Of a DNA stretch of 44,404 bases, positions 9,068-42,869 are shown in pieces. The stretch is from assembly GCA_015486235.1 (NCBI GenBank), contig WFSD01000025.1:1-44404 (forward strand), written 5' to 3'. The position numbers and the translations under genes are program-made. Position 1 is the stretch's first letter. The number at the start of each line of letters is the position of its first letter. The notes below the pieces were generated by a model. That model was not told the origin of the DNA and did no database searches. It saw only the letters and a program-made list of their open reading frames with translations. Source of the stretch: Anaerolineae bacterium (GTDB lineage: Bacteria > Chloroflexota > Anaerolineae > S016-19).

Positions 9068-9077
9068 TGTTTCCTCC

Positions 9078-10616: not shown

Positions 10617-10632
10617 CGCCAGATTTGGGAAC

Positions 10633-15871: not shown

Positions 15872-15992
15872 CTATCTTTAGAAAATGGCAGAACCCAACC
15901 CAGGACATCATCTAACGGAGCGAGCATCAGGTTGACGTTTAGTGAACCTGTGCCTCATTTGTTTAGTGAAAAGTCCGCAGGAGGCAAGCAAT

Positions 15993-17456: not shown

Positions 17457-17459
17457 AAA

Positions 17460-19454: not shown

Positions 19455-19465
19455 GGTGATCAAAA

Positions 19466-20392: not shown

Positions 20393-20423
20393 TCAAGCAC
20401 ATCTCAGTTAAGGAGGAGGTATT

Positions 20424-22121
20424 GTGGTTACAAAAGAGCGTCTTGCGGAATTCGAGGATAAGTTCAAGGGCGAGATAAGGGAGAAGAAAATCCTTACTCC
20501 TACTCAGATTCTTTACCTTGTGGATAAGAAAGGCCTGCCGGATATGGCGCATTACCTGCAGTACCATCCGGAATTCGATGAATCGTACTATGTTATGGGA
20601 GTCGGATCAGATGAGAGGCAACTGACAGGCAGGTTTGCTTATGCACCGGTCATAAACATGCTGGACAGTAGTGAGAAGCGCGAGAATTTCTACGTGATTC
20701 TGAAAGCCAGGTTGGACAAGGACAAACCGGAATTCCCGTCTGTCGCGCAAAAGCTCCCGGCAGCCCTTTGGGCCGAAAGAGAAGTTCGTGATCTGCTCGG
20801 GTTCAAGCCATTGGATCACCCTGACTTGAGAAGGCTTATTGCCCCAGAGGATTGGCCCGAGGGCGTCTATCCTCTGCGGAAAGACCATGAGTACAATGCC
20901 TCTCCCCCTGGCGAACTTCAGAATGCTTACAAGGAAGGACCTGCGGATACGTCGACGGTCCCGATCGGGCCGTATCACATGGCTCTGGATGAGCCTGCTC
21001 ATTTCAGGCTTTTCGTGAAAGGCGAAGAGATCGTTGATGTTGACTACAGGGGCTTTTATTCCCACCGGGGGATTGAGAAAATTGGGGAAGGCAGGCTGAC
21101 CTATAACCAAATATTCTACATAGCCGAGAGGATATGCGGAATATGTGGCTTCCAGCACTCTTGTGCGTATGCAATGGCCGTAGAGAACATAGCCGGTGTC
21201 GAAATACCGGAGAGGGCTCAGTATATTAGAACAATACTGCTCGAGATCGAGAGGATCCATTCACATCTGTTGTGGGCCGGAGTGGCGTGTCATTTGGTAG
21301 GCTTTGATACTGGCTTTATGCACGCGTGGCGCATAAGGGAAGATCCTGTCATGTGGCTGCCCGAAAGGCTGACGGGCGGCAGGAAAACCTACGGGATGAA
21401 TGTAGTCGGGGGTGTAAGAAGAGATTTCCTGGACTACAGGAAGGCAGAAATCCTCGATAAGATGAAACAGCTCAGGAAAGACGTCGAGAAGCTCTATAGC
21501 ATCGTGCTGAGCTCCGATATATTGATCAAGAGAGCGAAGGACGTAGGGGTCCTGCCTTACGAAGTAGCAAAGGCTTATGGAGTGGTCGGCCCTACTGCAA
21601 GGGCGTCGGGGCGAAACATAGACATCAGAAGGGACCACAAGGTATTTGCATACAAACATATAGACTTCGAAGTCCCCGTTTATCAGGAAGGGGATGTCTT
21701 GGCCCGGGTGCTGGTTCGGCTTGACGAGGTCTTGCAGAGCATAAACATCATAGAGCAAGCCGTGGATCAAATGCCCGAGGGCGATATTTTCACACCGATC
21801 GGGAAGCTCCCGGCTTACCATGAGGCGCTTGGGTATACCGAGGCCCACCGAGGCGAGGTAATACACTACGTGCTAACTGGCACTAACAACAAAGTCTACA
21901 GATGGAAAGTCAGGGCGCCAACTTACAACAACCTGCCAGCAGTTCCGGAGATGCTCAAAGGCTACAGGGTAGCCGATGCACCGTTGATCATAGCAAGTAT
22001 CGACCCCTGTTACGCATGCACAGAAAGGGTGCAGATAGTCGACGTGAAGACCGGCAAGATGAAAGTCCTGAATGAAGCTGAGTTCAACGAACTTTCGATT
22101 AGGGCTTCGGAGGGGTTATGA
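20424..22121 (+). CDS. hycE: Group 4 [NiFe]-hydrogenase large subunit (HycE-like, NuoC-NuoD fusion)
   Basis: GTG start behind AGGAGGAGG. Ni-binding motifs RICGICGFQH and DPCYACTER, followed by a ~30-aa C-terminal extension of the kind removed by HycI. Confidence 0.9.
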   Translation: MVTKERLAEFEDKFKGEIREKKILTPTQILYLVDKKGLPDMAHYLQYHPEFDESYYVMGVGSDERQLTGRFAYAPVINMLDSSEKRENFYVILKARLDKDKPEFPSVAQKLPAALWAEREVRDLLGFKPLDHPDLRRLIAPEDWPEGVYPLRKDHEYNASPPGELQNAYKEGPADTSTVPIGPYHMALDEPAHFRLFVKGEEIVDVDYRGFYSHRGIEKIGEGRLTYNQIFYIAERICGICGFQHSCAYAMAVENIAGVEIPERAQYIRTILLEIERIHSHLLWAGVACHLVGFDTGFMHAWRIREDPVMWLPERLTGGRKTYGMNVVGGVRRDFLDYRKAEILDKMKQLRKDVEKLYSIVLSSDILIKRAKDVGVLPYEVAKAYGVVGPTARASGRNIDIRRDHKVFAYKHIDFEVPVYQEGDVLARVLVRLDEVLQSINIIEQAVDQMPEGDIFTPIGKLPAYHEALGYTEAHRGEVIHYVLTGTNNKVYRWKVRAPTYNNLPAVPEMLKGYRVADAPLIIASIDPCYACTERVQIVDVKTGKMKVLNEAEFNELSIRASEGL

Positions 22122-22732
22122 TGGAAGATGTGAAAAAGATGTCTTATACTGAAACCTTGATGTCTTGGGAGCGACCTGACCTGAGGGTAGGGATCCCTGT
22201 GACTGTGAAATACCCTCTCGTCCCGACAGAGAAACCACCGGAGTACAGAGGGAAGCCTCATATCGATCCCAATGTGTGCATAGGCTGTGGGGCGTGTGTC
22301 CAAGCATGCCCGGCGAATGCCTTAACGGCCGAGTGGGATTTCGAGAGCGGTCTGAAGAGCATAGTTTCCAACCCTGCAAGATGTATCAGGTGCGGGAGAT
22401 GTCAAGAGGCATGCCCCACCGGGGCCATGAAGCTCACCCTGGAGTTCGAGCTTGCAACGCCGAACAAGGAGGATCTGGTTGAGGTTGTGGAACATCATCT
22501 GACGAAATGCAAGAAGTGCGGCAAGTACACTGAGTTTACCGAACGGCAGGTGAAGAAAGCGTTACAGATCTTGCCTAAGGAGATAATAGAGGCACGTGCT
22601 CTTGAGGAGAAAATGCAGCTGTGCCGAGAATGTAGAATGGAGGAAAGTGTAAAGGCTCTGGCGACACAGGAACATGTCATCGGCGATCCGTCACTCTTGC
22701 CCCCAGAGCGCACAAAGGGAGGGAAAGAATAA
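22118..22732 (+). CDS. hycF: HycF/NuoI-like 2x[4Fe-4S] subunit
   Basis: CIGCGACVQACP and CIRCGRCQEACP motifs. 4-nt overlap with hycE. Confidence 0.8.
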   Translation: MMEDVKKMSYTETLMSWERPDLRVGIPVTVKYPLVPTEKPPEYRGKPHIDPNVCIGCGACVQACPANALTAEWDFESGLKSIVSNPARCIRCGRCQEACPTGAMKLTLEFELATPNKEDLVEVVEHHLTKCKKCGKYTEFTERQVKKALQILPKEIIEARALEEKMQLCRECRMEESVKALATQEHVIGDPSLLPPERTKGGKE

Positions 22733-23523
22733 TGGGAAAACCAGCGCTTAAGTCAGTCTGGGTCTTCCATGTCGACAGTGGAAGCTGCAATGGTTGCGAT
22801 ATCGAGGTACTGGATATGCTCACTCCATACTACGATCCAGAGCGTTTTGGCATAAAGCTCGTTGGCACTCCCAGGCACGCCGATGCGTTGCTTGTCACTG
22901 GTGCAATGACCAGGCAGTGTCGCTATGCCGTGAAAAAGGTCTATGAAGCTATGCCTCCTAAACCAAGGATAGTCATCGCTGTGGGAACGTGTGCCTCTAG
23001 CGGCGGCATTTTCTACGATGGGTACCCGATCTACAGGAGCAAAGATCGTTTTGGAAGGGACAGGTTGAGGAGCGGAGGTGTCGAGGAGGTATTGCCTGTT
23101 GATATGTACATCCCTGGTTGCCCCCCGAGTCCTGAGGAAATACTCTTTGGAATAGCTCAGCTTTTAGGGATGAAAGAGAAAAGAGTGAAAGGAGAACATT
23201 ACACGGACAGGGAGACGGAGTTCAAGCTCCTCCAATATCCTATAGCAGAGCGCATCAGGCTGAGCTTACGGGAGTCCTTGAAGAAAGTCATTGGATATTT
23301 CGATAGAGACAGGGTTCTGGAAGATTTCATGGAAATGGCAGGAGAGGCAAATGGGGCGAAAGACCCAAAAGAAAAACTTCATGCTCTGGTTACAAGCTAC
23401 TTCTTGAAAGAGACAGACTCCCGCATGAAGTTTTCGATGAAATTCTTGGAGAACGAGTACTGGAGACTGAAAGATGCCTACGAAGCAAAGCACGTGGCAC
23501 TTACTGAAACTCATGTACCGTAA
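22732..23523 (+). CDS. hycG: Group 4 [NiFe]-hydrogenase small subunit (HycG/NuoB-like)
   Basis: CNGCDIE, GTCASSGG and IPGCPPSPE cluster ligand motifs. Its ATG overlaps the hycF stop. Confidence 0.85.
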   Translation: MGKPALKSVWVFHVDSGSCNGCDIEVLDMLTPYYDPERFGIKLVGTPRHADALLVTGAMTRQCRYAVKKVYEAMPPKPRIVIAVGTCASSGGIFYDGYPIYRSKDRFGRDRLRSGGVEEVLPVDMYIPGCPPSPEEILFGIAQLLGMKEKRVKGEHYTDRETEFKLLQYPIAERIRLSLRESLKKVIGYFDRDRVLEDFMEMAGEANGAKDPKEKLHALVTSYFLKETDSRMKFSMKFLENEYWRLKDAYEAKHVALTETHVP

Positions 23524-23566
23524 CCCTCCCTACGTGTCTCAATCTTTGGGACATTTTGCGGGAGAT

Positions 23567-23782
23567 ATGGCTATACTGGAGGAGATTGGGGAGCTTAGCG
23601 AGGAAGCGGTAGGGATAATCAAGGAAAGCCTCGCAACAGAGAAATCCGAAATAGACCTGACTTTCCCTGATCTGTCCCTCATCCCGATCGATCGGCTCCC
23701 GGAGAAGGATAAAGAGCTTCTCCTCAACTCTGCTAAAGAGCTCGAGGGCGACGCAAAACTCAAAATACTGAGATTGAGGTAA
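23567..23782 (+). CDS. Small acidic hypothetical protein (71 aa)
   Basis: The ORF is in operon orientation directly after hycG, and the start choice is uncertain. I recognise no motif. Confidence 0.3.
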   Translation: MAILEEIGELSEEAVGIIKESLATEKSEIDLTFPDLSLIPIDRLPEKDKELLLNSAKELEGDAKLKILRLR

Positions 23783-23783
23783 C

Positions 23784-24203
23784 ATGTGCAACAGCCGAGA
23801 AGAGAAAGCTGCCTTAGTCAAGCGCCTTATGGAGTACTACGGTGACAATCTGCTTTCTGTGATTTTCTATGGAGCTCATCTTAAGGGCATACTTGATGAA
23901 ATTGATGTATTCGTGATCATCGAGGAACCCACCGATCCTGTTAAGCTTAACAGACTCGCAGACTTCATCGAAGATATCAAGGAACCAATCGAGAGGAAAT
24001 ACGGGTGTCCGGTGGCCTTTGAGCTTTACATAAAGGAAGATGCCGACAGTTTCCATGCCGTTTACCTTGATATTGCAAAGGCTTACGAGATCGCCTATGA
24101 TAGGGGCAACTATTTCGCCGGGCTTCTTAGCAAGATGACCGATCCAGAAGTCTCGATGCACTATGTCCAGTATCTGAGCACAATCGAGATAATAGAGAGT
24201 TGA
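23784..24203 (+). CDS. Putative minimal nucleotidyltransferase-fold protein
   Basis: FYGAHLKG....DEIDVFVII resembles the G[SA]xxxG...DxD motif of Pol-beta-type nucleotidyltransferases. It starts 2 nt after the preceding ORF. Confidence 0.4.
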   Translation: MCNSREEKAALVKRLMEYYGDNLLSVIFYGAHLKGILDEIDVFVIIEEPTDPVKLNRLADFIEDIKEPIERKYGCPVAFELYIKEDADSFHAVYLDIAKAYEIAYDRGNYFAGLLSKMTDPEVSMHYVQYLSTIEIIES

Positions 24204-24424
24204 TGCATTGCGTGTCATAGGGTGGAGAATCTACAAGACCTCCCCTCGCCTGCAGAATGTTCTCAATGGAAGGTAACCTGGCAGTTCGGCAGAAGGGGGT
24301 TCCAATAGTCGCGTCTTCGACATCGAGAACGTGGAAGCGTCCCAGAGGGATAGGGGCGCTTTTTGTGGTTCACACTTGCGACGCTATGATTGCGAGTTTG
24401 CGAAATGCCTGACGGGAGAGTAAA

Positions 24425-24916
24425 TTGGAAAGGTTTTGGAAAACTCTCGAAGAATGCAGGAAGTGCGTCATTTGCGGAATAGGGAATCCTGAAAGAGGAG
24501 ACGATGCATTTGGTACCGTCGTAGCAAGGAAACTGAAAGATCGCCTCCGGGGAAGATCAAGTGTGGTCGTGTTGGACTGTGAGGGCGTGCCCGAAAAGTA
24601 CACCGACAAGATTATTGCAGTAGACCCGTCCCACGTCATTTTCGTGGACACGATAGACTTCGGGGGCAATCCCGGCGAGGTGGCCATCGTCGATCCGGAG
24701 GATACGGTTGGTTCGCTTCAATCGGTACATCGGTTACCTCTAAAGCTTCTGGTGCATTATCTGAAGGCGTACATAGATCCGGTTTTCTTGCTGGTGGGAT
24801 GTCAGCCGGTAGATACCGAGCTTTTCAGCGATATGAGCGATGATGTCGAGAAGGCTGTGCAGCCGGTGGTGGGAATGCTACTTGAGGCGGTCGCACGGGG
24901 GCCCGTCAGCTCATGA
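24425..24916 (+). CDS. hycI: Hydrogenase maturation endopeptidase
   Basis: GIGNPERGDDAFG motif with a later conserved His region. TTG start behind GGGAGAG. Confidence 0.75.
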   Translation: MERFWKTLEECRKCVICGIGNPERGDDAFGTVVARKLKDRLRGRSSVVVLDCEGVPEKYTDKIIAVDPSHVIFVDTIDFGGNPGEVAIVDPEDTVGSLQSVHRLPLKLLVHYLKAYIDPVFLLVGCQPVDTELFSDMSDDVEKAVQPVVGMLLEAVARGPVSS

Positions 24917-24989
24917 TGCTGTTGAACAGGCCTGCGACGAGGAAGAAAGCAGCGAAAGGAATGGTGCTATTTATGGGGGTAAGTCTGAC

Positions 24990-25331
24990 ATGCATGAATT
25001 GCCTTTTGTCGAAAGCGTTCTTAAAATAGCCTTAGAACAGGCCGAGCAAGCCAAAGCCAAGCGTGTTGTGGGAGTAACTCTGGTAATTGGTGATTTATCC
25101 AGTATGGTGGATGAATCTGTCCAGTTTTACTGGGACATAATAAGCGAGGGGACAATCGCCGAAGGCGCGAAATTACATTTCAAACGTCTTCCTGTAGTAT
25201 TTCAGTGCAAGGACTGTGGAACAAAGTACCAGTTAGATGGCGAGCATCTTGCATGTCCCAAGTGTGGGAGCACTCGCGTCTCTATAGTGAGCGGAGACGA
25301 GGCACGTTTTGAAAGCATAGAGGTGGAGTGA
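24990..25331 (+). CDS. hypA: Hydrogenase nickel-incorporation protein HypA
   Basis: N-terminal MHE and the zinc motif CKDCG...CPKCG. 113 aa. Confidence 0.85.
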   Translation: MHELPFVESVLKIALEQAEQAKAKRVVGVTLVIGDLSSMVDESVQFYWDIISEGTIAEGAKLHFKRLPVVFQCKDCGTKYQLDGEHLACPKCGSTRVSIVSGDEARFESIEVE

Positions 25332-25398
25332 AGTCGCCTTGTGCCAAGGAATGATCGCTGACATATCAACGTGTAACGCGAGAAAACAGAGGAGAGTT

Positions 25399-26067
25399 AT
25401 GAGCACAAGAACTATACCTGTCGTTGAGAATATTTTAGGCGCTAATGACCGGATAGCCCAGGCCAACCAAGGGATCTTTGATTCCACCAGGACGTTTGCC
25501 GTTAACTTCATGGCATCCCCTGGTGCTGGGAAAACAAGCGTCATCCTGCGCACCGTTCAGGCTTTACAGGGCCGTTACAGAATGGCCGGCGTGGATGGGG
25601 ATGTTGCAACCACCATTGACGCCGACCGGATGGCCTCCAATGGCATCCCCGCGGTGCAAATCAACACTGGCGGAACCTGCCATCTGGATGCTGTAATGCT
25701 ATCTGGGGCCCTCCCGAAACTGAATCTGGATGAAGTTGACCTTCTCATCATCGAGAACGTAGGTAACTTGATCTGTCCTGCCAGTTTCAAGCTTGGGTCT
25801 CATTTAGATGTGCTCATTGCGAGCGTGCCTGAGGGGGACGACAAGCCGTACAAATACCCCAAAATGTACCGCGGCGTGAAAGCTGTCCTCCTGAACAAGA
25901 TCGACCTGCTGCCGTACTTCGATTTCGACATGGATTATTTTCGCAAGGGGGTAGAAGTGCTTAATCCTGGATTGGCATTCTTCCCGGTATCCGCTAAGAC
26001 AGGCAAGGGGTTGGACGATTACATTCGGTGGCTTACAGAGCAGGTGGATTTGTACCTCGCCCTGTAG
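25399..26067 (+). CDS. hypB: Hydrogenase nickel-incorporation GTPase HypB
   Basis: The start is at MSTRTIP behind GAGGAG. P-loop SPGAGKT, then ENVGNLICP and NKIDL motifs. Confidence 0.85.
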   Translation: MSTRTIPVVENILGANDRIAQANQGIFDSTRTFAVNFMASPGAGKTSVILRTVQALQGRYRMAGVDGDVATTIDADRMASNGIPAVQINTGGTCHLDAVMLSGALPKLNLDEVDLLIIENVGNLICPASFKLGSHLDVLIASVPEGDDKPYKYPKMYRGVKAVLLNKIDLLPYFDFDMDYFRKGVEVLNPGLAFFPVSAKTGKGLDDYIRWLTEQVDLYLAL

Positions 26068-26129
26068 GGGCAGGCCTTGTGCCTGCCCGGTCGCGTGCTT
26101 GCCCAGGTCGAGCCAGACGGCTCGACCTG
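26068..26129 (+). terminator. Two consecutive GC-rich stem-loops after hypB (8 bp and 11 bp), no U-tract
   Basis: GGGCAGGC-CTTGT-GCCTGCCC (26068-26088) and CAGGTCGAGCC-AGAC-GGCTCGACCTG (26104-26129), read directly. Confidence 0.4.
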
Positions 26130-26148
26130 CAAACTGACGTGGTGAAAA

Positions 26149-28458
26149 TTGGACAGAGAATTCGTTCGTTACGAACATATCCATATAGACGGCATCGTGC
26201 AAGGGGTCGGGTTCCGGCCGTTTGTCTACAGGCTGGCGAAGCGATATGGCCTGCGAGGCTGGGTCCGCAACAGCAGCCAGGGCGTAGACATCCGCGTTCT
26301 GGGCGATGTCGACTCGCTGGACGGCTTCGCGGCCTCCCTTGGTGTGGAAGCGCCCCCTTTGGCGCGGATAACGAACATCAGTCGAAAAACCCTTTCCTCG
26401 GACGGCCACGACCTTCCGGATGATTTCGTAATCGTCGAAAGCAAGGATGAAAGCGGCTTCACGCTGGTCTCGCCAGATGTAGCCACCTGCAAGGACTGCC
26501 TGCGGGAGCTTTTCGATCCCAGCGACCGACGATACCGGTACCCGTTCATCAACTGCACCAACTGCGGACCACGGTTTAGCATCATCAAGTCGCTTCCCTA
26601 CGATCGTCCAAACACTACCATGGCGATTTTCCCCATGTGCGAGGAGTGCCGGAGCGAGTACGAAGACCCCATGAACCGCCGCTTCCACGCACAGCCAAAT
26701 GCCTGCCCGAAATGTGGTCCAGAGGTGTGGCTGGAGGTGAAGCCGGAATGGCAGTCGGGAGTACCAAAGGCGGCTGTCGATGACATCGCCAGGACAGCGG
26801 CGCTGTTGCGAGAGGGGGCGATCCTGGCAATCAAGGGGCTGGGTGGATTTCACCTTGCCTGCGACGCAACCAACGAGAACGCGGTGCTGAAATTGCGGGA
26901 ACGGAAAATGCGCCCACACAAGCCGCTGGCGATAATGATCCAGGACCTGGACGCGGTTCGGGAATGCTGTGAACTTTCGCCAGAGGAGGAGACTTTGCTT
27001 ACCTCACCTGCGGCGCCGATCTTGCTCCTGACACCAAAGCAGGGGAACAGCATTGCACCGAACGTGGCTCCAGGGCAACGTACAATCGGTGTGATGCTTC
27101 CGTACACGCCGTTACATCACATCCTGCTTCGAGATGCGGACCGTCCCCTGGTGATGACCAGTGGCAACCGGCAGGATGAGCCGATCGCCCGCACCAACGA
27201 GGAAGCGCGTGAAAAGCTCGATTCTATCGTGGACGGTTACCTCTGGCATAACCGTCCCATTCATAACAGGATAGACGATAGTGTGTGGATGCCGAGCAGA
27301 CTTGGGGCTTTCCCCATCCGGCGGTCCCGTGGATACGTGCCGTATCCGATCATGTTGAATTTCGAATCGCCCGTAACGGTGCTGGCGGTTGGGAGCCAGA
27401 TGAAGAACACTTTTTGCCTGCTGGATGGCCGCTACGCTTTCCTGAGCCAGCATATCGGTGAGATGGATTACCTTAGCACGTGGGAGTTCTTCGCGGAAAG
27501 TGCCAGGCGGTTCATGGAGCTTTTCAGACTCCATCCCACGGTGGTGGCCTACGATATGCATCCCGATTTCAGCGAGGCTGCGGAGGCGGCGCTGGCAAAC
27601 CTGCCCGGTATGGGGAGTGCCCACCGCGTGCAGGTACAGCACCATCACGCGCATATCGCATCCTGCCTGGCAGAGAACGGCGTAGCAGGACCGGTGATTG
27701 GGCTCGCGTTCGACGGGACCGGGTATGGCCCCGACGGCACGGTCTGGGGCGGGGAGTTCCTGCTGGCGGATTTGCACAGCTACAAGCGGATTGGACATCT
27801 TTCCACATTTCCGCTTCCCGGTGGCGATCTGGCGATCCGGAATCCGTACCGGATCGCGCTGGTGTTGCTCCAGCAGGCTTTTGGTGAGATGCCGGAAGAT
27901 CTGGGTTTCTGGCAGCGTGTGCCGGAAATAGAACGCAAGCTGATCCTCGCCCAGGTGGAGAGAGGGCTGAATTCGCCAATGACCTCCAGTTGCGGGCGGC
28001 TGTTCGACGCCGTGTCGGCCATGCTAGGTGTGTGCGACCGCACGACCTACGAGGGTCAGGCCGCCATCGAATTGGAGACCCTGGCAGCGCAGGCGGCATG
28101 TGTCTCGCCGTATCCTCTTGCGCCGATGGAGACTGACTCAGAGGTTATGCTGCCAACCGAGGCGATCTTCCGGGCAGCAACGGAGGATTTCATCTCGGGA
28201 ACGTCTGCCACCGTGGTTGCGGCACGTTTCCACCTGACCATGATAGAGCTCTCACTTGCGGCGGTAGAGATGCTGGGACAGGAGTTTGGTGTTCATGAGG
28301 TTGCTCTAAGCGGAGGTTGCTTCCAAAACAGGATCTTTCTGGAAGGACTGGTGGAGGGTCTGCGGCGGCGTGGGTTCGAGGTTTACACGCATCACCTGGT
28401 TCCGCCTGGGGACGGAGGCATTTCGCTGGGGCAGGCAGTAGTAGCCGCTGGAGGGTAG
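26149..28458 (+). CDS. hypF: Carbamoyltransferase HypF
   Basis: Acylphosphatase-like N-terminus (GIVQGVGFRPFVYRLA). Two zinc-finger pairs (CKDC...CTNCGPRFS and CEEC...CPKCGP). YrdC-like and Kae1-like C-terminal domains. The TTG start is uncertain. Confidence 0.9.
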   Translation: MDREFVRYEHIHIDGIVQGVGFRPFVYRLAKRYGLRGWVRNSSQGVDIRVLGDVDSLDGFAASLGVEAPPLARITNISRKTLSSDGHDLPDDFVIVESKDESGFTLVSPDVATCKDCLRELFDPSDRRYRYPFINCTNCGPRFSIIKSLPYDRPNTTMAIFPMCEECRSEYEDPMNRRFHAQPNACPKCGPEVWLEVKPEWQSGVPKAAVDDIARTAALLREGAILAIKGLGGFHLACDATNENAVLKLRERKMRPHKPLAIMIQDLDAVRECCELSPEEETLLTSPAAPILLLTPKQGNSIAPNVAPGQRTIGVMLPYTPLHHILLRDADRPLVMTSGNRQDEPIARTNEEAREKLDSIVDGYLWHNRPIHNRIDDSVWMPSRLGAFPIRRSRGYVPYPIMLNFESPVTVLAVGSQMKNTFCLLDGRYAFLSQHIGEMDYLSTWEFFAESARRFMELFRLHPTVVAYDMHPDFSEAAEAALANLPGMGSAHRVQVQHHHAHIASCLAENGVAGPVIGLAFDGTGYGPDGTVWGGEFLLADLHSYKRIGHLSTFPLPGGDLAIRNPYRIALVLLQQAFGEMPEDLGFWQRVPEIERKLILAQVERGLNSPMTSSCGRLFDAVSAMLGVCDRTTYEGQAAIELETLAAQAACVSPYPLAPMETDSEVMLPTEAIFRAATEDFISGTSATVVAARFHLTMIELSLAAVEMLGQEFGVHEVALSGGCFQNRIFLEGLVEGLRRRGFEVYTHHLVPPGDGGISLGQAVVAAGG

Positions 28459-28579
28459 TCGGTTCCTTGGGGCAAACCTGCATGCCATGCGGTGAAGCAT
28501 TGTTCAGCAAAAGGAGTCATCATATTATTGACAAAGCTTTTTCGATGTTGGTGCCATAACTGGTTACAAGGAGGGTGGT

Positions 28580-28837
28580 ATGTGCCTTGCAGTACCATCA
28601 AAAATTCTAGAAATTCAAGACGATAGGGCAAAAGCCGACTTTGGAGGTGTCCATCGCACCATTAGCCTTCAGTTGATGCCGGATGTCAGAGTAGGAGATT
28701 ACGTGCTGGTCCATACAGGCTTCGCCATTGGTAAAGTAGACCCTGGAGAGGCCAGGTTGACACTTGAGTTGGTTTCCAAAATGGGGGACCTGAGCCCGTC
28801 TCGATTGTTGGAATTGGGGAGGAGGAGCGAAAAGTGA
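28580..28837 (+). CDS. hypC: Hydrogenase assembly chaperone HypC
   Basis: N-terminal MCLAVP signature. 85 aa. Confidence 0.85.
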   Translation: MCLAVPSKILEIQDDRAKADFGGVHRTISLQLMPDVRVGDYVLVHTGFAIGKVDPGEARLTLELVSKMGDLSPSRLLELGRRSEK

Positions 28838-28840
28838 ACT

Positions 28841-29929
28841 ATGCGGTTCGTAGATGAGTTTCGAGACCCTCTTCTGGCGCGCAAACTTCTCGATGAAATT
28901 GCGGAAATGGCTACAAAACCGATGTCTTTCATGGAATTCTGTGGAGGTCACACACACGCCATCATGCAATTTGGCATTCGACAGTTATTGCCGCCTCAAG
29001 TAAAGTTGCTCTCCGGGCCGGGATGCCCGGTCTGTGTGACTTCCCAGGCAGATATCGACCAGGCAATCGCTCTTTCTCGCATCCCCAATGTGATATTGAC
29101 TTCTTTCGGGGACATGATACGCGTTCCTGGGACGACTTACACTTTGCAAGAGGCTTCCGCCAGCGGTTCTGATGTGCGGATTGTGTATTCTCCATTGGAC
29201 GCAGTTCAACTTGCTGTGGAGAATCCGGATAGAGAAGTCATATTTCTTGGCGTGGGATTTGAGACCACTGCTCCCGGAGTGGCCGCTTCAATTCTAGAGG
29301 CAGCGCGGTTGGGCCTCAGGAATTATTCGGTCTTTTCCATGCACAAATACACCCCCCCGGCAATGAAAGGGATCCTCAATGGTGGGGAGGTACGACTCAG
29401 CGGGGTTATAGGCCCAGGTCATGTTGCTACGATCATCGGCTCGGATGCCTGGCGGTTCCTGCCAGAGAGATATAACATGCCAGTTGTGGTATCCGGGTTT
29501 GAGCCGGTGGATATTCTGCTCACAGTGCACGAGTTAGTTAGTCAGGTTGTGGATGGCGTTGCCACGGTGGAAAATGCCTATACCCGCTCAGTGCTCCCGG
29601 AGGGTAACTTAGCCGCGCTAAAGATCATGGACGAGGTCTTTGAGGTGGCCGATGCCGATTGGCGCGGGTTTGGGGTGCTGCCACTCAGTGGGATGGCCAT
29701 CCGTGCTAAGTACGCTCACTATGATGCCAAAGTGCGTTTCTCTATGCCGCAGGTGCCATCCCGAGAGCCACCCGGATGCCGATGTGGTGAAGTGCTGCGG
29801 GGCATTGTCGAACCTCCAGAATGTCCTTTGTTTGCCAAAGCATGCACTCCCGATCACCCCAAAGGACCCTGCATGGTCTCGGATGAAGGCGCTTGTTCCG
29901 CTTATTACCTCTACGGGCGGTCAAGCTGA
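28841..29929 (+). CDS. hypD: Hydrogenase maturation factor HypD
   Basis: MRFVDEFRD, FMEFCGGHTH, GPGCPVCV and GFETT motifs. Confidence 0.9.
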   Translation: MRFVDEFRDPLLARKLLDEIAEMATKPMSFMEFCGGHTHAIMQFGIRQLLPPQVKLLSGPGCPVCVTSQADIDQAIALSRIPNVILTSFGDMIRVPGTTYTLQEASASGSDVRIVYSPLDAVQLAVENPDREVIFLGVGFETTAPGVAASILEAARLGLRNYSVFSMHKYTPPAMKGILNGGEVRLSGVIGPGHVATIIGSDAWRFLPERYNMPVVVSGFEPVDILLTVHELVSQVVDGVATVENAYTRSVLPEGNLAALKIMDEVFEVADADWRGFGVLPLSGMAIRAKYAHYDAKVRFSMPQVPSREPPGCRCGEVLRGIVEPPECPLFAKACTPDHPKGPCMVSDEGACSAYYLYGRSS

Positions 29930-29945
29930 TAATCAGGAGGTGTTG

Positions 29946-30959
29946 ATGTCCAAAGAAGAACGCATTACGATGGCCCACGGCACTGGCGGACGGATGACAC
30001 AACAGATCATAGAGAAGGTTTTTGGTAGGCGATTCAGCAATCCGATTCTGGATCGAATGAACGATGCTGCCCTTCTCTCCGTCGGGAGCGGCAGGCTAGC
30101 GTTTAGCATAGATGGCCATGTGGTGAATCCCCTTTTCTTCCCCGGAGGTGACATAGGGAAAATCGCCATCTACGGCACTGTGAACGACCTGGCGATGATG
30201 GGCGCAAGACCGCTGTGGCTGGTGGTGTCTTTTATCATTGAGGAAGGATTGCCGGTTCACACATTGCATAGGATTGCCGAATCCATGGCAGAAGCTGTTG
30301 AAAAGGCGGGGGTTCAAATGGTCGGTGGCGATACGAAAGTCGTGGAGAAAGGGAAAGGAGATGGCGTCTACGTGTCCGTGGCTGGCGTTGGCATCGTTCC
30401 CGAGGGCAGGAACATCGACGCTGGCAACGCCCGCCCTGGCGATGTGCTGATCCTCAGCGGCCCCATCGGCAACCACGGGATCACGATAATGACCCTGCGA
30501 GAGGGTCTGGAGTTCGACGTGGAAATCGCCAGCGATACTGCCCCTCTAAACGGTATTGTGGAAGATTTGCTAGAGGCTGCGCCTCATGTTCATGTGATGC
30601 GGGATGCCAGTAGAGGCGGACTTGCTACAGTGTTAAACGAGTTAGCTACGGCTTCTGGCATAGGTATTGAGATGGATGAAGATGCTATACCGGTAGAGGA
30701 ACCCGTGGAGCGGGCGTGTGCTTTACTGGGGCTGGATCCCCTCTACGTGGCAAACGAGGGGACATTTGTCGCGATAGTGCCTCCCGAGGAAGGGGATGCG
30801 GCTCTTGAAGCAATGCGGGCGCATCCTGTGGGGCAGAAATCGGTGAAGATAGGCGAGGTGGTGGAGTCGCATCCAGGGCGCGTGGTGCTAAGGACAGCGT
30901 TGGGTGCGCAACGAATTGTTGGACCGCTAAGCGGGGATTTACTCCCTCGGATTTGTTAA
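29946..30959 (+). CDS. hypE: Hydrogenase maturation factor HypE
   Basis: The start is at MSKEERITMAHGTGG behind AGGAGG. AIR-synthase-like fold. C-terminal PRIC. Confidence 0.9.
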   Translation: MSKEERITMAHGTGGRMTQQIIEKVFGRRFSNPILDRMNDAALLSVGSGRLAFSIDGHVVNPLFFPGGDIGKIAIYGTVNDLAMMGARPLWLVVSFIIEEGLPVHTLHRIAESMAEAVEKAGVQMVGGDTKVVEKGKGDGVYVSVAGVGIVPEGRNIDAGNARPGDVLILSGPIGNHGITIMTLREGLEFDVEIASDTAPLNGIVEDLLEAAPHVHVMRDASRGGLATVLNELATASGIGIEMDEDAIPVEEPVERACALLGLDPLYVANEGTFVAIVPPEEGDAALEAMRAHPVGQKSVKIGEVVESHPGRVVLRTALGAQRIVGPLSGDLLPRIC

Positions 30960-31143
30960 CATCTCGAAATTTTGTTTGCCAACGTACTGCGCAAGCCGAG
31001 AGTACTTCCGACAGACTGGCCTGTGCAAAAACAGCCAGCGTTCTTGTGGCAACGTCGGGCTGCCGGAGAGATCGTGTATGGAGCGCAAAATGGTGTCGCG
31101 GGGATCTACTGACAACGTAACGGGCTCGCAAAAGCAACCTCGT

Positions 31144-31572
31144 ATGCTTTCCATTTTGGATAAATCGGAAAGTGCTGTTTACTACGCGACAATATCGGTG
31201 TTGATATTTGCAGCCGGTATTCTGCTGGTATTTGGGTTTTTCCGCTTCATAATCAACATCAATGCTAACATACACGACAACGTGCTCCAGCTGTTGCAAT
31301 GCCTTTTACTGGTCATGATGTTGATGGAAATACTCCATACCGTTGAGATTTCCATCAGCCAGCACAAACTGATAGCCGATCCGTTTTTGGTTGTAGGCAT
31401 CATTGCGGCCATCCGCAGGATGTTGGTAGTAACCGTGAAATTAGAGCAGACAAGTGCGATTAGCTCTCAAAGTAATGATTCCTTTCTCCTGTGGGAGCTA
31501 GGTTTATTGGCGTTAGTCACGCTGGCGCTCTCTATATGTATTTATATCCTGAGAAGCAAAAGGGAGTTCTGA
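31144..31572 (+). CDS. PsiE-like small membrane protein
   Basis: Four hydrophobic segments and the stretch MEILHTV...DPFLVVGIIAAIRRML, which resembles the PsiE family. The start is uncertain (alternatives at 31078 and 31090). Confidence 0.45.
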   Translation: MLSILDKSESAVYYATISVLIFAAGILLVFGFFRFIININANIHDNVLQLLQCLLLVMMLMEILHTVEISISQHKLIADPFLVVGIIAAIRRMLVVTVKLEQTSAISSQSNDSFLLWELGLLALVTLALSICIYILRSKREF

Positions 31573-31808
31573 GGCAAGCCGACATCCCTCAGCCATGTCG
31601 TCCCTGGCGCAGCTGCCGCGCGAGCAGGTGTGGTTACCAATCAAGAACTCATAGGGCAGACGAATGTTGGAACCTGTGACTGGATTGTTCGTACTCCATC
31701 CGGGTCGGGAAGTCGGGATGACTCGCGGACAACACGAAAAGTGTGGGACAGGTATCCCCAATATCTGAGATGGCAATGTCTGCATCGATCGAAGTAAAAC
31801 TCACCCAA

Positions 31809-33740
31809 ATGAAACCTGGACACGGATATGTCGGCAAGATATTGCATGTCGACTTGACCTCCAAAAACCTGTGGACAGAAGAGCCCGGTGAGGAATGGTA
31901 TCGCCTGTACTGGGGTGGCAGTGCATTGGGTGTTTATCATGCTTTGAGATTGATCCCGCCTGGTGCCGATCCTCTTGGTCCGGAGAATGTGCTGATATTT
32001 GCCATCAGCCCACTGACCGGAGTGCCCGTGGCCGGAAACAGCCGACTTACGGTCACGGCCCTCTCTCCCTTGACTGGTGCCATTGGTGATTCCCAGAGCG
32101 GTGGCTTTCTACCCGCGGAGATGAAATTCGCTGGGTTCGATGCCGTGGTGATCCGTGGAAAGGCCTCAAAACCGGTTTACCTGTGGCTCCACGATGGTGA
32201 AGCGGAGCTGCGTCCAGCAGAGCACATCTGGGGAAAAGTCACCGGGGAGACCGAGGACATCCTCCGTCGGGAGTTGGGCGACCCGCAGATCCAGATTGCC
32301 GAAATCGGCCCCGCGGGCGAGAAGATGGTGCGGTTTTCGGCGATCATGCATATGGCCAACCGCGCTAACGGTCGTGCCGGGTTGGGGGCGGTCATGGGGA
32401 GCAAGAACCTGAAAGCGATCGCCGTGCGCGGGCATGGCAAGCCAGCGGTGGCAGATCCGAAGGGAATCAAACGTCTCATAGCCATTACCATGGATCGGAT
32501 AAGGCAATCACGCTGGGCACAATCCCTGAGCGCCTACGGCACCGCCGGAACGCTGAGCTACCAGAACAGCACTGGTGGGCTTCTGACGAACAATTACACC
32601 AGCGGCAAGCGGATGAAGGAGACGATCCTCCAGAGAATGGAGACATGTTTCGCCTGCCCTATCGCCTGCAAACCTGTGGTGAAAGTGGAAAGCGGCCCGT
32701 GGAAAGTAGATCCAAGGTACGGAGGCCCGGAGTACGAAACTCTGGCGGCGTTCGGTTCATACTGCGGCGTCAGCGACTTGGGAGCCATCGCCAAGGCAAA
32801 CGAGCTTTGCTCCAAATATGGGGTAGATACCATCTCCTGCGGCGCTACGGTGGCGTGGGCGATGGAAGCGTATCAGAACGGATTCATTCGGCGCAGGCTT
32901 GAAGACGGCCTAGAACGCCTGCGTCCTCACTTCGGTGACACAGCTTCCATGCTCCGTCTCATGGCCTTGACCCTGACCCGCGAAGGGATAGGCGATCTTC
33001 TGGCAGAGGGGCCTGCGCGTGCAGCCAGGGCCATCGGCCCGGAGGCGGAGGAATTGCTTGCCCAGGTAAAGAGACGGGATGCTCCGGCACACATGCCACA
33101 GATCAAACGATCGCTGGGCGTGATCTACGCTGTCAACGCTTTCGGCGCGGATCACAATCCGTCGGCTCACGATTCATCCCACCGTCCCAGGCTGAAGAAA
33201 GAACGCCCTGAGAGGCTTGCTGAACTTGGGATCACCAGGCCGCAACCCATGAACGTCCTGAATGATGAGAAAATTCGCTTTGCCCTACGGGCTCAATACT
33301 TCTACAGTGCGATGGACATCCTGAACGTCTGCCAGTTCGTCTTTGGTGTCGGGGATCAACCCTTCGGACCGAAAGACCTGGTGGACTTTGCCCGCGCTAC
33401 CACTGGCTGGGATGTGACAACAGACGAGTTGATGAAGCTGGGAGCCCGGCGGATCAGCATGATGCGCATGTTCAATGTTCGACACGGGATTGGTCCGGAA
33501 GAGGATAGACTTTCCCGCCGAATGCTCAGAGCGCTGGTCGGAGGTGCTGCGGATGGGACAAAGCTGGGCGAGGAAGAAATCGCCAACGCGGTGAGACGGT
33601 ACTACGAAATAGCTGGTTGGGACGAATTGGGTGTGCCAAAGCCAGAAACGCTGGATGCACTTGGGCTGGGATGGCTTGAGGAAAGCTCCGCCTTGTTGGC
33701 AGTGATCCCATCGCCAAACAGAAGTTTCATGAACGGTTGA
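31809..33740 (+). CDS. aor: Aldehyde:ferredoxin oxidoreductase family tungstopterin enzyme
   Basis: N-terminal GYVGKILHVDLT, 4Fe-4S ligands CFACPIAC, and EYETLAAFGSYCG. The start is uncertain (ATG at 31770, 31776 or 31809). Confidence 0.85.
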   Translation: MKPGHGYVGKILHVDLTSKNLWTEEPGEEWYRLYWGGSALGVYHALRLIPPGADPLGPENVLIFAISPLTGVPVAGNSRLTVTALSPLTGAIGDSQSGGFLPAEMKFAGFDAVVIRGKASKPVYLWLHDGEAELRPAEHIWGKVTGETEDILRRELGDPQIQIAEIGPAGEKMVRFSAIMHMANRANGRAGLGAVMGSKNLKAIAVRGHGKPAVADPKGIKRLIAITMDRIRQSRWAQSLSAYGTAGTLSYQNSTGGLLTNNYTSGKRMKETILQRMETCFACPIACKPVVKVESGPWKVDPRYGGPEYETLAAFGSYCGVSDLGAIAKANELCSKYGVDTISCGATVAWAMEAYQNGFIRRRLEDGLERLRPHFGDTASMLRLMALTLTREGIGDLLAEGPARAARAIGPEAEELLAQVKRRDAPAHMPQIKRSLGVIYAVNAFGADHNPSAHDSSHRPRLKKERPERLAELGITRPQPMNVLNDEKIRFALRAQYFYSAMDILNVCQFVFGVGDQPFGPKDLVDFARATTGWDVTTDELMKLGARRISMMRMFNVRHGIGPEEDRLSRRMLRALVGGAADGTKLGEEEIANAVRRYYEIAGWDELGVPKPETLDALGLGWLEESSALLAVIPSPNRSFMNG

Positions 33741-34339
33741 AGGTTAGCGCAGATTTCGCTGATTTTTCGGAAGGGTTCGGGAAATGCGAGTAACTCCACA
33801 GCGCGTCGCACTGCTCAAACGGGAAGAAACGCTTGCTCTAGGGGCGCACCGTGCTGCACCCATCGTTGAATCCGAAAAGGGAGTTGTGTTGGCGCTTGCA
33901 AGCGCCGGATGATAAAAACACAAACCCTTGGCGGATGGCTTGGCAGTGCCAGCCTTACCGCCTCGGTTTGGGATGACGATGTAGCGGCGGGAGGCATTGC
34001 TTTTCCAGGAACTCATCTCCAAAATCAGCGAAAAGTCCGGTTAGTGTTCTCAATCTACCAATTTGAAGGCTCCTGTCTACTCGCCTGAACATCAGTTTCA
34101 CTCGGTGACTACCCATATCTCGCTGTTCTACGCCATTCCGGTCCGAGCTTCTACGAAGTGAGGAGTCTTGTCCGCAATCGGCGAATCAACGAGTGGGCGA
34201 GGTTCGTTGATTTACTCACTTGTTGATTCGCTGATTTCGATTTCCCCTCTACAGGAGCTCCCTGGCCCGACCCTGGATGACTGTCCATACTCGAGAAGAT
34301 CATCCTAGCTCTTTGGTTTGAAAAGCCCTGCCCTTGGGG

Positions 34340-34496
34340 GGCTTTCGAAGCAAATCGAGGCCGGGGAACGCCCTTGGGAGCCCTCACAGTCGATACAGGG
34401 CTTGTGCTGTGGCTTGCCAGGGGTTGACGAGAACCTCCCGAAAGGCAGGTTAATTCCTGGGGACCCTACGGGTCCCCAGGAATTACTTCGCTCTCC
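34340..34496 (+). repeat. Structured MITE-like repeat, copy C
   Basis: Nearly identical to copy D. Hairpin TAATTCCTGGGGACCC-TAC-GGGTCCCCAGGAATTA at 34451-34485. Confidence 0.85.
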
Positions 34497-34513
34497 CAGC
34501 CCAAATATGGTAC

Positions 34514-34542
34514 TTGACAATGTCGTATTTTTGATGTATAAT
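34514..34542 (+). promoter_or_regulatory. Consensus sigma70-like promoter following repeat copy C
   Basis: TTGACA-17 nt-TATAAT read directly, about 210 nt upstream of the SDR gene. Confidence 0.65.
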
Positions 34543-41067: not shown

Positions 41068-41221
41068 ACCATGACGCAGCCTCCGGCCGCAACCAAATGC
41101 CTGGAGTTCAGACGGCAGTTCGGACACGGCAGGTAGCGGTGCATCGTTAGCAAGGCATAACTGTTCAGCCTTGAACAAGTCGAACGCAGGTACCGTAGGT
41201 AAAGCAAATGAACAAGAAAAG

Positions 41222-41248
41222 ATCAGCGAGAATCAGCGCCTATCAGCG
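41222..41248 (+). repeat. Three ATCAGCG direct repeats with exact 10-bp phasing
   Basis: gATCAGCGagaATCAGCGcctATCAGCG read directly. Confidence 0.6.
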
Positions 41249-41294
41249 TTCTACTGCTGGGGAAGCTGAGTAGTAACAGCAAGGCAACATTCGG

Positions 41295-41328
41295 TCGGTA
41301 CGGGTGCAGCATGCTGCACCCGTACCGA
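41295..41328. other. 34-nt perfect palindrome
   Basis: TCGGTACGGGTGCAGCATGCTGCACCCGTACCGA read directly. It lies in the intergenic region between divergent genes. Confidence 0.7.
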
Positions 41329-41375
41329 TTCACTCCGGCTAAGAGACGATGTCCGAACTCATGTCGAAAGGCCAG

Positions 41376-41538
41376 GGACTTCGAAGCAAATCGAGGCCGG
41401 GGAACGCCCTTGGGAGCCCTCGCCCTCACAGTCGATACAGGGCTTGTGCTGTGGCTTGCCAGGGGTTGACGAGAACCTCTCCGAAAGGCAGGTTAATTCC
41501 TGGGGACCCTACGGGTCCCCAGGAATTGCTTCGTTTTC
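41376..41538 (+). repeat. Structured MITE-like repeat, copy D
   Basis: Hairpin AATTCCTGGGGACCC-TAC-GGGTCCCCAGGAATT at 41495-41527. Flanked by GGCCAG at 41370-41375 and 41539-41544. Confidence 0.85.
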
Positions 41539-41552
41539 GGCCAGTTCACCTC

Positions 41553-41581
41553 TTGACAAAGCACCCCCTTCATGCTACAAT
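41553..41581 (+). promoter_or_regulatory. Near-consensus sigma70-like promoter following repeat copy D
   Basis: TTGACA-17 nt-TACAAT read directly. Confidence 0.6.
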
Positions 41582-41589
41582 ATTGTTAG

Positions 41590-41601
41590 TTAAACGTTTA
41601 A
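41590..41601. promoter_or_regulatory. LacI-type operator candidate O1 (TTAAACGTTTAA)
   Basis: Perfect 12-bp palindrome with a central CG, starting 9 nt after the -10 box. Confidence 0.55.
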
Positions 41602-41824
41602 GTCAGATGCTGGGGGAACAATGGCCATTCGGCCAAAGCTTTGCGCGAAGTCGCATGGTGGAAAGCCAGTTGGTCTCGCCGTGGCGCTTTTTTGACGGGG
41701 ATCAGCCCCAAGTAGGGGGCTCACCACCAGCACACCAGCCGGACGGCGCTTGTTGGAAAGGATGACTGGGGCTAAACTTGCCTCCTTCGCAAGACCTTGA
41801 AGGCTTTTATTTTTGACAAAGGAG

Positions 41825-41836
41825 TTAAACGTTTAA
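41825..41836. promoter_or_regulatory. LacI-type operator candidate O2 (TTAAACGTTTAA)
   Basis: Identical 12-bp palindrome (14 nt shared, AGTTAAACGTTTAA) between the AAGGAG RBS and the ATG of the LacI-family gene. Confidence 0.55.
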
Positions 41837-41837: not shown

Positions 41838-42869
41838 ATGTCTAATGTGACTATCCGTGATGTCGCCAGAGAAGCTGGCGTCTCCATTGCGACAGTCTCT
41901 TACGTACAGAATAACTCCCGTCCTGTGAGTGAAGAGACCCGTCAGCGCGTGCTCCAGGCAGCCAAACGTTTGGGCTATCGCGCGAACATCACGGCGCGCA
42001 ACCTGCAGGCCAGCGAAACCAGGCTATTTGGCTATTCCTGGCGTCCCAGCCCGCCTGATTACTCCAATCCCATCCTGGACCGTTTTTTGCAGGCCATGGC
42101 CGAAGCGGCGGCGGTTCATGGCTATCACGTGCTAACGTTCCCATTCCCGACCGTCGAGGACGAAGTGGCCGCCTACGCAGAGATGATACTGACCGGGCAG
42201 GTGGATGGTTTTGTGCTCTCCAACACCAATTTGAACGACCAACGCGTACGTAGTCTATTGGACAGCGGATTCCCGTTTGTGGCCTTTGGCCGTTCTAACC
42301 CAGACTGGGATTTCCCCTGGGTGGACGTGGACGGGAAAACCGGTGTGCGCATGGCCACACAGCATCTGATTGCACAGGGGCACCAACGTATTGCCTGTCT
42401 GGCCTGGCCCGAAACATCGCTAAGCGGCCAGTACCGCTTGAGCGGCTACATGGAAGCTATGGAGGCAGCCAATTTGCCGGTGGATCCTGCCTGGATCGAG
42501 CGGGTCAAGAATTCCCATAACGACGCTTACGCTGCTTCATGGCGGCTGCTGAATCAACCGGCGGATCGCCGGCCCAGCGCGATTGTCGCTTTCACCGATC
42601 TCATGGCACTGGGCGTGATCAATGCCGCTTGGGACGCGGGGCTGAAGCCCGGCCGCAACCTGGCTGTGACCGGGTTCGATGACGCTCCGATAGCCCGCTT
42701 CCTCCGTCCACCGCTAACCAGCTTGCGCCAGCCTATCGCTGAAGTGGGGGAGCGTTTGATAACCATGTTGGTGGATATCGTGCAGGGGAGGCCTCTCGCC
42801 GAGCCCCATGTCTTGTTGCAACCTGAATTGGTCGTGCGTGCCTCCAGCGTCGTGTTGTATGAGGAGTGA
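41838..42869 (+). CDS. LacI-family transcriptional regulator
   Basis: N-terminal HTH VTIRDVAREAGVSIATVSYVQN plus a periplasmic-binding-fold sugar-sensor domain. Confidence 0.9.
   Translation: MSNVTIRDVAREAGVSIATVSYVQNNSRPVSEETRQRVLQAAKRLGYRANITARNLQASETRLFGYSWRPSPPDYSNPILDRFLQAMAEAAAVHGYHVLTFPFPTVEDEVAAYAEMILTGQVDGFVLSNTNLNDQRVRSLLDSGFPFVAFGRSNPDWDFPWVDVDGKTGVRMATQHLIAQGHQRIACLAWPETSLSGQYRLSGYMEAMEAANLPVDPAWIERVKNSHNDAYAASWRLLNQPADRRPSAIVAFTDLMALGVINAAWDAGLKPGRNLAVTGFDDAPIARFLRPPLTSLRQPIAEVGERLITMLVDIVQGRPLAEPHVLLQPELVVRASSVVLYEE

Follow-up and report, generated by a model that had tools for sequence, protein, structure and literature searches.

A structured intergenic repeat, probably a MITE-like mobile element, in a narrow lineage of uncultured Anaerolineae-like Chloroflexota

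Four copies of a roughly 160-bp structured repeat lie in a 44,404-nucleotide contig of an Anaerolineae bacterium (the window, that is, the whole stretch of DNA that was analyzed), and each carries a long hairpin whose arms differ from copy to copy. The question is what keeps those arms paired: selection on a transcript or events in the DNA itself. The first-pass annotation had taken the mirrored changes as a sign of a selected RNA or single-stranded DNA structure. We consider the repeat to be probably a small noncoding, MITE-like mobile DNA element belonging to a narrow lineage of uncultured Anaerolineae-like Chloroflexota. This reading draws upon its terminal inverted repeats, its lineage-specific presence, the replacement of one allele by another at site B, the flip of a hairpin loop at site A, candidate 6-bp duplications at copies A and D, decayed copies elsewhere, the placement of copies B and D upstream of promoters, and the resemblance of its ends to those of IS903, together with the lack of a match in Rfam. 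Among named homologues, the best matches to the proteins encoded in the window come from Anaerolineae, Caldilineae, and other Chloroflexi metagenome-assembled genomes (MAGs).

Anatomy and range of the repeat

Alignment recovered all four annotated copies, every one of them intergenic. Copy A occupies positions 4114 to 4274 on the minus strand, with a 5' terminal box at 4274-4256, a core box at 4201-4182, hairpin arms at 4158-4145 and 4141-4128 around a GTA loop (4144-4142), and a 3' terminal box at 4132-4114. The other three are on the plus strand. Copy B spans 10460 to 10617 (5' box, 10460-10478; core, 10532-10550; hairpin arms, 10573-10586 and 10590-10603; 3' box, 10603-10617), and copy C spans 34339 to 34497 (5' box, 34339-34357; core, 34413-34429; arms, 34451-34466 and 34470-34485; 3' box, 34483-34497). 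Copy D, at 41375 to 41538, has its 5' box at 41375-41393, its core at 41455-41471, its arms at 41495-41509 and 41513-41527, and its 3' box at 41526-41538.

In the four-way alignment, all copies share the 5' box GGG(C/A)(T/C)TTC(G/A)AAG(C/T)AAATCG and the 3' box TT(G/A)CTTCG. The core box is also present in all four, although its internal spacer varies from 1 to 4 nucleotides rather than the 2 or 3 originally given; the consensus is CTTGCC-N1-4-GGGGTTGAYG, which can also be written CTTGCC-N1-4-GGGGTTGA(T/C)G. The hairpins are perfect, with 3-nucleotide loops and arms of 14 bp in A and B, 16 bp in C, and 15 bp in D, and the differences between the arms of different copies are mirrored in the opposite arm exactly as annotated. 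Copies C and D are 91% identical and differ by a GCCCTC indel, a 1-nucleotide indel, and a few substitutions. Apart from this pair and two copies found outside the window (L010 and L048, 85%), pairwise identity is 57 to 77%. The common architecture includes a variable second stem, which defines subfamilies, and a G+C-rich palindrome in a subterminal position, directly next to the 3' terminal repeat. Despite 30 to 40% divergence elsewhere, the core box is invariant in seven of the eight copies now known.

The two ends of the element had been described as able to pair. Their complementarity stands, and we prefer to read them as terminal inverted repeats of 17 to 19 nucleotides, with GGG-N3-4-CGAAGCAAAT(CG) as the 5' end and the inverse sequence as the 3' end. 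Copy A has the best-matched ends (GGGCTTTCAAAGTAAATCG versus the inverse of GGGATTTCGAAGCAAATCG), and a repeat family, D2, takes in an inverted copy at 4107-4132. The terminal sequence that would bound a parent insertion sequence (IS) is GGGCTTTCGAAGCAAATCG. The motif CGAAGCAAWY occurs six times in the window, compared with 0.54 expected, and always inside an element, while a profile built from the copies and run over the window matched exactly four sites, with no other full or partial copy, which together indicate that the pattern is not due to chance. No tRNA genes were found in the window.

Overall, eight distinct copies were found: A to D, L010, L048, L088, and B'. The first pattern used on the genome collection, AAATCG-N-CTTGCC-N-GGGGTTGAYG, was loose. 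It matched at least 79 loci, of which the 79 listed comprise 77 chance matches and two true copies (L010 and L048, from one uncultured Anaerolineae MAG), and rarity in genomes cannot be inferred from those listed. A tighter pattern gave one true copy (L088) among six matches in the metagenome collection and no copy in viral contigs. At least three true copies among the matches listed thus lie outside the population of the window, and the eighth distinct copy, B', comes from population variants of the window's own loci. No further copies were present in about 20 kb of adjacent sequence, and a profile search over 1.65 Mb of collected sequence found nothing beyond the eight. On the matches listed, the high genome-wide copy number implied in the first-pass annotation is not supported. 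L088 is in the opposite orientation, between two codirectional genes. The hairpins of the copies outside the window's population have decayed, with G.T, A.C, and G.G mismatches, as would fit dead copies of a mobile element.

In several assemblies of the window's population, contigs break or have gaps or deletions where elements and hairpins lie. A high copy number was not taken as proved by the breaks at copies C and D, because an unrelated strong hairpin also interrupts assemblies. The FGGY kinase genes found next to elements were likewise rejected as marking orthologous insertions; the kinases are just 23 to 29% identical. Two other palindromes in the window should be mentioned here. A perfect 14-bp hairpin, GCGTAGAGCAGGCC-TGC-GGCCTGCTCTACGC, lies at 3921-3951 on the minus strand, in the leader downstream of copy A; at this hairpin, one assembly of the same population (L099) ends, another (L097) has a run of N, and a third (L098) lacks about 95 nucleotides, which reflects either a second polymorphic insertion or hairpin-induced assembly failure. 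A perfect 34-nucleotide palindrome without a loop, TCGGTACGGGTGCAGCA followed by TGCTGCACCCGTACCGA, is found at 41295-41328, 47 nucleotides upstream of copy D, and its sequence is unrelated to the element.

The genes between the copies have features of their own. In the region from 4339 to 9211, a gene assigned by Pfam to QRPTase is ModD-like and has archaeal proteins (Thermococcus and Methanosarcina, 53 to 67% identity) as its best named homologues. It stands with Mo/W-type ABC transporter genes at a G+C content of 45 to 47%, versus 50 to 59% elsewhere, and the region may have been acquired horizontally. A formate-hydrogenlyase-like cluster (13266-31572) encodes a molybdopterin oxidoreductase, a 4Fe-4S protein, Mrp/Nuo-type membrane subunits, the large subunit of a NiFe hydrogenase, HycI, and the products of HypA/B/F/D/E maturation genes, and it is followed by a tungsten-type aldehyde:ferredoxin oxidoreductase (31743-33740). 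The synteny of the cluster is kept in two relatives (L201 and L203).

Pairing, loop inversion, and allele replacement

The RNAalifold consensus structure from seven copies contains the big hairpin, the second stem, a terminal helix formed by the 5' and 3' boxes, and pairing across the core that is rich in G.U. Across these copies, 93.8% of cells are paired, and pairing falls to 33 to 57% when partners are slid by 1 to 3 columns in either direction. Both sides have changed in 8 of the 37 pairs, and none of 500 shuffles reached the observed covariation score. The retention of pairing is therefore real and beyond chance, as first proposed, yet it does not distinguish RNA from DNA. Folding energies are similar on the two strands and so carry no information on strand. 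No Rfam family matched the window at gathering thresholds, and copy D gave only chance-level matches at an E value of ≤10, in keeping with the initial impression that the family was not a known one.

One explanation is that the repeat is transcribed, as a small RNA, a 3' untranslated region, or a read-through segment, and that its hairpins are selected as RNA, for example, as a terminator or stabilizer of the upstream transcript. The pairing and its eight double changes are what this predicts, and copy A and L010 lie immediately downstream of a gene on the same strand. However, copies B and D lie in divergent intergenic regions, upstream of promoters and outside predicted transcription units, where no gene on the same strand feeds into them, and the inverted position of L088 between its codirectional neighbors is similarly hard to accommodate. 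There is also no conserved promoter within or before the element. In a simple scan for terminators (a G+C-rich stem plus a T run), copy D passes, with the tail CTTCGTTTTC, but A, B, and C fail; the tail is TTGCTTCG. Departures from strict pairing in the big hairpin on the element strand are slightly more often G.T (5 to 7) than A.C (2) by our own count, in the direction expected of an RNA, but the asymmetry is not significant, and the equal folding of both strands does not favor a transcript either. In view of the comparisons among strains described below, we regard a selected RNA as quite unlikely.

At site A, the window has GTA in the loop, whereas TAC is found there in four further assemblies from its population (L096 to L099: two MAGs, a metagenome assembly, and a Logan assembly); over more than 400 nucleotides, these assemblies are otherwise identical to the window. 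This difference is read as an inversion in place, on the basis of assemblies rather than reads; the arms and loop together span 31 nucleotides, so that ordinary k-mer sizes should resolve the orientation of the loop. The contrast noted in the first-pass annotation between GTA in copies A and B and TAC in copies C and D is the same flip. A flip is likewise seen in L088, there in the loop of the small hairpin at the 5' end.

At site B, the flanks in the window and in three of these assemblies (L096, L097, and L099) are 97 to 99% identical (261 to 266 of 268 to 269 positions and 182 of 185 positions), but the element between them matches at only 106 of 158 positions (67%), with an additional 27 gapped columns. 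Near-identical flanks around divergent elements indicate a single locus that holds two members of the family in near-identical strains. Copies B and B' are 70% identical, and B' is about equally similar to A, B, and L010 (70 to 72%), so that an impression by eye that B' belongs to the subfamily of copy A was rejected. In the B' allele, which is found at the same promoter as B, the core is degenerate and the hairpin is imperfect. The strain-variable block (10439-10622, plus strand) comprises element B with 21 nucleotides to its left and 5 to its right, from just after ...CTTCTCAGGGA to just before ATTTGGGAACTTGACG. An empty site would read ...CTTCTCAGGGA joined directly to ATTTGGGAAC, and no such precise empty site was found in a conspecific strain. 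The swap could represent ectopic gene conversion rather than transposition.

Immediately to the left of copy B, the fragment at 10439-10459, (GGGA)TTACTTCGTTTTCCAAGACCA, looks like the 3' end of another element (compare GGAATTGCTTCGTTTTCGGCCAG in copy D). It is missing from the B' allele, which suggests nested or successive insertions at site B.

Neither the loop flip nor the swap to a 70%-identical version between almost identical flanks would be expected of a functional RNA gene. Furthermore, template switching from arm to arm can give "compensatory" changes without any selection on RNA. The step from compensated arms to a selected RNA is therefore not supported, given loops that flip in place among assemblies of one population, one locus with two versions of the element in near-identical strains, the inverted repeats at the ends, the position of two copies in divergent regions before promoters, and a weak G.U/A.C asymmetry. 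More generally, the loop inversion and the whole-element replacement show palindrome dynamics at the level of DNA, and mirrored arm substitutions in a repeat are thus insufficient for inferring a functional RNA.

Comparison with relatives shows where the element is missing. At site D, loci with LacI orthologues of 90, 84, 75, and 72% identity all keep the promoter and operators and lack the element (4 of 4), and at site B, three relatives whose kinase orthologues are 69 to 72% identical have no element upstream. Within the population, copy D is identical in two other assemblies (L080 and L198) and has one substitution in L199. This C-to-G change at 41438, inside the element, is the sole difference between L199 and the window in 630 nucleotides, and it converts a C.C mismatch in the second stem into a C-G pair (GCCCTC...GAGGGC).

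Two copies have candidate target site duplications. Copy A, on the minus strand, is flanked by GATTGC at 4275-4280 (5' end) and 4113-4108 (3' end), a 6/6 match with offsets of 0/0. Copy D, on the plus strand, is flanked by GGCCAG at 41370-41375 (5') and 41539-41544 (3'), also 6/6, with offsets of +1/-4. The frequency of a 6/6 match between flanks within 4 nucleotides on either side is 1.6% in shuffles and 2.5% in cross-copy controls. A search over 48-nucleotide flanks was not significant (P = 0.15 to 0.8), and only the comparison restricted by position is suggestive; a clean abutting repeat is wanting in five of seven copies. The left flanks differ from one another (GATTGC, AGACCA, CTTGGG, GGCCA, and CACAGA) and contain no conserved tetra- or pentanucleotide target.

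Neighboring promoters and operators

The best-scoring sigma70-like sites in the scanned stretches are found just after copies B, C, and D. A -35-like TTGAC(A/G) begins 10 to 16 nucleotides past the end of the element in B (there, past the swapped block), C, D, and L010, for which we estimate a chance of about 0.006 per copy. The promoter after copy B, TTGACG-18-TACAAT (10633-10662, plus strand), is of the host sigma70 type and lies 10 nucleotides past, and outside, the swapped block. Copy C is followed after 16 nucleotides by a host-type promoter with a 12/12 match, TTGACA-17-TATAAT (34514-34542, plus strand). Fourteen nucleotides past copy D is the native promoter of a LacI-family gene, TTGACA-17-TACAAT with a TG extension, which together with an operator occupies 41553-41601 on the plus strand; the proximal operator itself, TTAAACGTTTAA, is at 41590-41601 on the same strand. 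No promoter follows the element in L088 or L048.

These promoters were considered as possible parts of the repeat, and that idea was rejected. The -35 at site B is outside the swapped block in the comparison of B with B', and at site D the -35, -10, and operators are kept in relatives that do not have the element, where the LacI loci retain CTCTTGACAA-N17-TGCTATACT and flanking TTAAACGTTTA-type operators. This conservation of promoter and operators at orthologous loci without the element indicates that the adjacent promoter belongs to the host. The element is therefore found just upstream of promoters through either an insertion preference or selection.

The LacI-family gene itself (41838-42869) appears to be autoregulated, judging from the palindrome TTAAACGTTTAA, which follows the -10 and recurs at 41825-41836, before the start codon. 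Both operator sites and the promoter are conserved at the orthologous loci of 90 to 72% identity. A third, distal operator, TGAAACGTTTAAC, is located just upstream of the -35 in three of the four relatives and is missing in the window, where copy D occupies its place. The leader of the gene (approximately 41610-41790) contains about 180 nucleotides that are missing from all four relatives and end in a terminator-like hairpin (41784-41803) followed by CTTTTATTTTT; this extra stretch may represent a further insertion, or it may be a small RNA or the region of a leader peptide. Upstream of copy D, at about 41220-41255, ATCAGCG occurs three times (GATCAGCGAGAATCAGCGCCTATCAGCG), and a longer tandem array of it (GATCAGCGTTGATCAGCGCGCA...) is found upstream of a kinase gene in the relative L203 (approximately 1520-1580). 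These repeats may form a binding array for a regulator.

Such placement raises the possibility that the repeat is a cis-regulatory DNA module of the host, in which the core box and hairpin make up a protein-binding or insulator cassette, about 45 to 200 bp upstream of promoters, that is kept by selection for its effect on them. The spacing to the -35, the near invariance of the core, and the position of copy D at a displaced operator are all compatible with such a role. However, the genes that lie downstream have no function in common (their products are an ABC permease, a histidine kinase, a short-chain dehydrogenase, and a regulator of the LacI family), the same promoters occur without the element in relatives, and L088 and L048 have the element without the promoter. 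The B' allele combines a degenerate core and an imperfect hairpin with the same promoter as B, and a regulatory site would need neither terminal inverted repeats nor the replacement of one allele by another. We consider such a module very unlikely.

A bolder variant of the mobile-element reading is that the element homes to DNA just upstream of sigma70-type promoters and then acts as a portable insulator or terminator that displaces upstream operators. It is suggested by four independent insertions in which the element (for B, the swapped block) ends 10 to 16 nucleotides before the -35, and we offer it as a rather doubtful proposal. If it is true, promoter-proximal placement would be a property of the insertion mechanism or of strong selection and not an accident, and if the placement proves to be targeted, the element would be a useful natural system for the study of promoter-directed insertion.

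Mobility and comparison with known elements

Returning to a MITE-like mobile element as the preferred reading, we propose that a transposase encoded elsewhere would move it in trans. In the window, neither a transposase gene nor an autonomous element sharing the ends of the repeat was found. The leading candidate for the mover would be a DDE enzyme like those of IS5/IS903, because the terminal repeat resembles the end of IS903. The perfect palindromes and their "compensatory" changes may be kept through exchange between the arms (intrastrand template switching or gene conversion), through a restriction of transposition to copies with an intact hairpin, or through both, and selection on RNA would not be required. 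Inversion of the loop would be a by-product of this palindrome maintenance. Any effect on the host would be secondary, such as a block to read-through into the downstream promoter or the displacement of an upstream operator. Selfish mobility alone explains neither the near invariance of the internal box nor the regular distance to the -35.

The terminal repeat aligns with the IS903 end GGCTTTGTTGAATAAATC, which was verified on an annotated plasmid copy of 1,057 bp, at a P value of 0.0002 to 0.0014 versus shuffles, with IS903 having been chosen post hoc. The 5' end of the element, GGCTTTC(G/A)AAG(C/T)AAATCGAA, aligns with GGCTTTGTTGAATAAATCGAA of IS903, and the shared blocks are GGCTT and AAATCGAA. 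The IS903 group makes 9-bp duplications, whereas the candidate duplications of the element are 6 bp. No transposase of the IS5 family lies beside the element in the window, and the host phylum is unrelated. IS5 inserts upstream of promoters in Escherichia coli.

An alternative route of movement would resemble that of REP- or PATE-like sequences, with single-stranded DNA mobilized by an HUH tyrosine transposase (a RAYT or a relative of IS200/IS605) or with purely palindrome-based recombination. The small 5' hairpin paired with a perfect subterminal 3' hairpin fits such a route, as do the GTAG/CTAC within the big hairpin and the lack of a clean duplication in most copies. All six perfect hairpins of the contig with arms of at least 14 bp cluster in the four spacers that bear elements, and the terminal box CGAAGCAAT/ATTGCTTCG is common to a widespread nested palindrome of about 77 nucleotides. 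However, GTAG is in the loop and flips, rather than marking the foot of the stem as in REPs, the window has no RAYT or IS200 gene, and the left flanks offer no conserved target. A profile of the small palindrome run against the elements gave nonsignificant E values of 0.5 to 5, and no transposase recurs beside the small palindromes. We therefore view hairpin-directed movement as unlikely.

The nested palindrome has the form GTCATTGCGAG-CGnAG-CGAAGCAATCCAG-(variable center)-CTGGATTGCTTCG-...-CTCGCAATGAC and occurs in at least 96 IMG/VR viral contigs (L101 to L196), as well as in relatives of the window's organism (L089, 2700-2785; L094, 5667-5743 and 8314-8390). A search beside it for a recurring transposase met only phage structural genes. 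It matches no Rfam family and is not described in the literature searched. As in the element, its CGAAGCAAT/ATTGCTTCG box abuts a G+C-rich stem (CCAGGGGCCC... versus CCTGGGGGCCC...). In contrast, its outer arms, TCATTGCGAG, are missing from the element, and it has neither the core box nor the interior of about 110 nucleotides. The loop of the L089 palindrome (GACTTGC...GGGG) resembles the core box. Derivation of the element from this palindrome is not established, the similarity being too short and the profile E values being 0.5 to 5.

Among known families, REP/BIME sequences, with their RAYT transposases, are, like the element, G+C-rich palindromes outside genes that cluster as mosaics in intergenic spacers, are suspected to be mobile, and may act in termination or mRNA stability (PMC3733652). 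The element unit is 160 bp with terminal inverted repeats, whereas a REP is 20 to 40 bp; GTAG tags the foot of the REP stem, whereas GTAG/CTAC lies across the loop of the element, with no RAYT gene nearby. PATEs of the IS200/IS605 type have no terminal inverted repeats and insert 3' of a short conserved target, in contrast to the element, which has terminal repeats.

Minute inversions associated with hairpins are found in chloroplast noncoding DNA, and template switching at quasipalindromes is known from mutagenesis studies of E. coli. These processes resemble what is seen here in the in-place inversion of a short loop between perfect arms, its recurrence in close relatives, and the concerted changes on both arms. 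They are mutational processes and not element families, and they explain the flips and the mirrored substitutions but not the spread of the repeat.

The closest overall likeness is to the bacterial MITEs, such as Correia in Neisseria, ERIC/IRU, RUP, and Nezha, which, like the element, are noncoding, intergenic, and 70 to 300 bp long, with terminal inverted repeats of 15 to 30 bp, strong secondary structure, subfamilies, presence or absence according to lineage, positions next to promoters, and possible effects on neighboring genes (PMC3733652). MITEs are expected to be noncoding, dispersed, and shorter than 300 bp, and here there are four copies of about 160 bp in 44 kb. They are also expected to be polymorphic for insertion, and four relatives lack the element at site D and three lack it at site B, while B and B' differ. 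It departs from known MITEs in that its duplications are only candidates, no parent IS was found in the window, and the adjacent promoter is that of the host (shown for D) and not carried by the element. In place of a single hairpin running from end to end, it also has an invariant internal box and a separate, perfect palindrome in a subterminal position. Neither a description of MITEs in Chloroflexi or Anaerolineae nor sequence strings of the element appeared in the literature searched, so the element would add a structured mobile repeat family to the Chloroflexota (class Anaerolineae), where we found none described. Such elements beside promoters and operators can confuse MAG assembly, strain comparison, and the prediction of regulons. 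The unusual points of the family described here are the regular placement before the -35, the swap of a whole element at one locus, and loops that flip in place.
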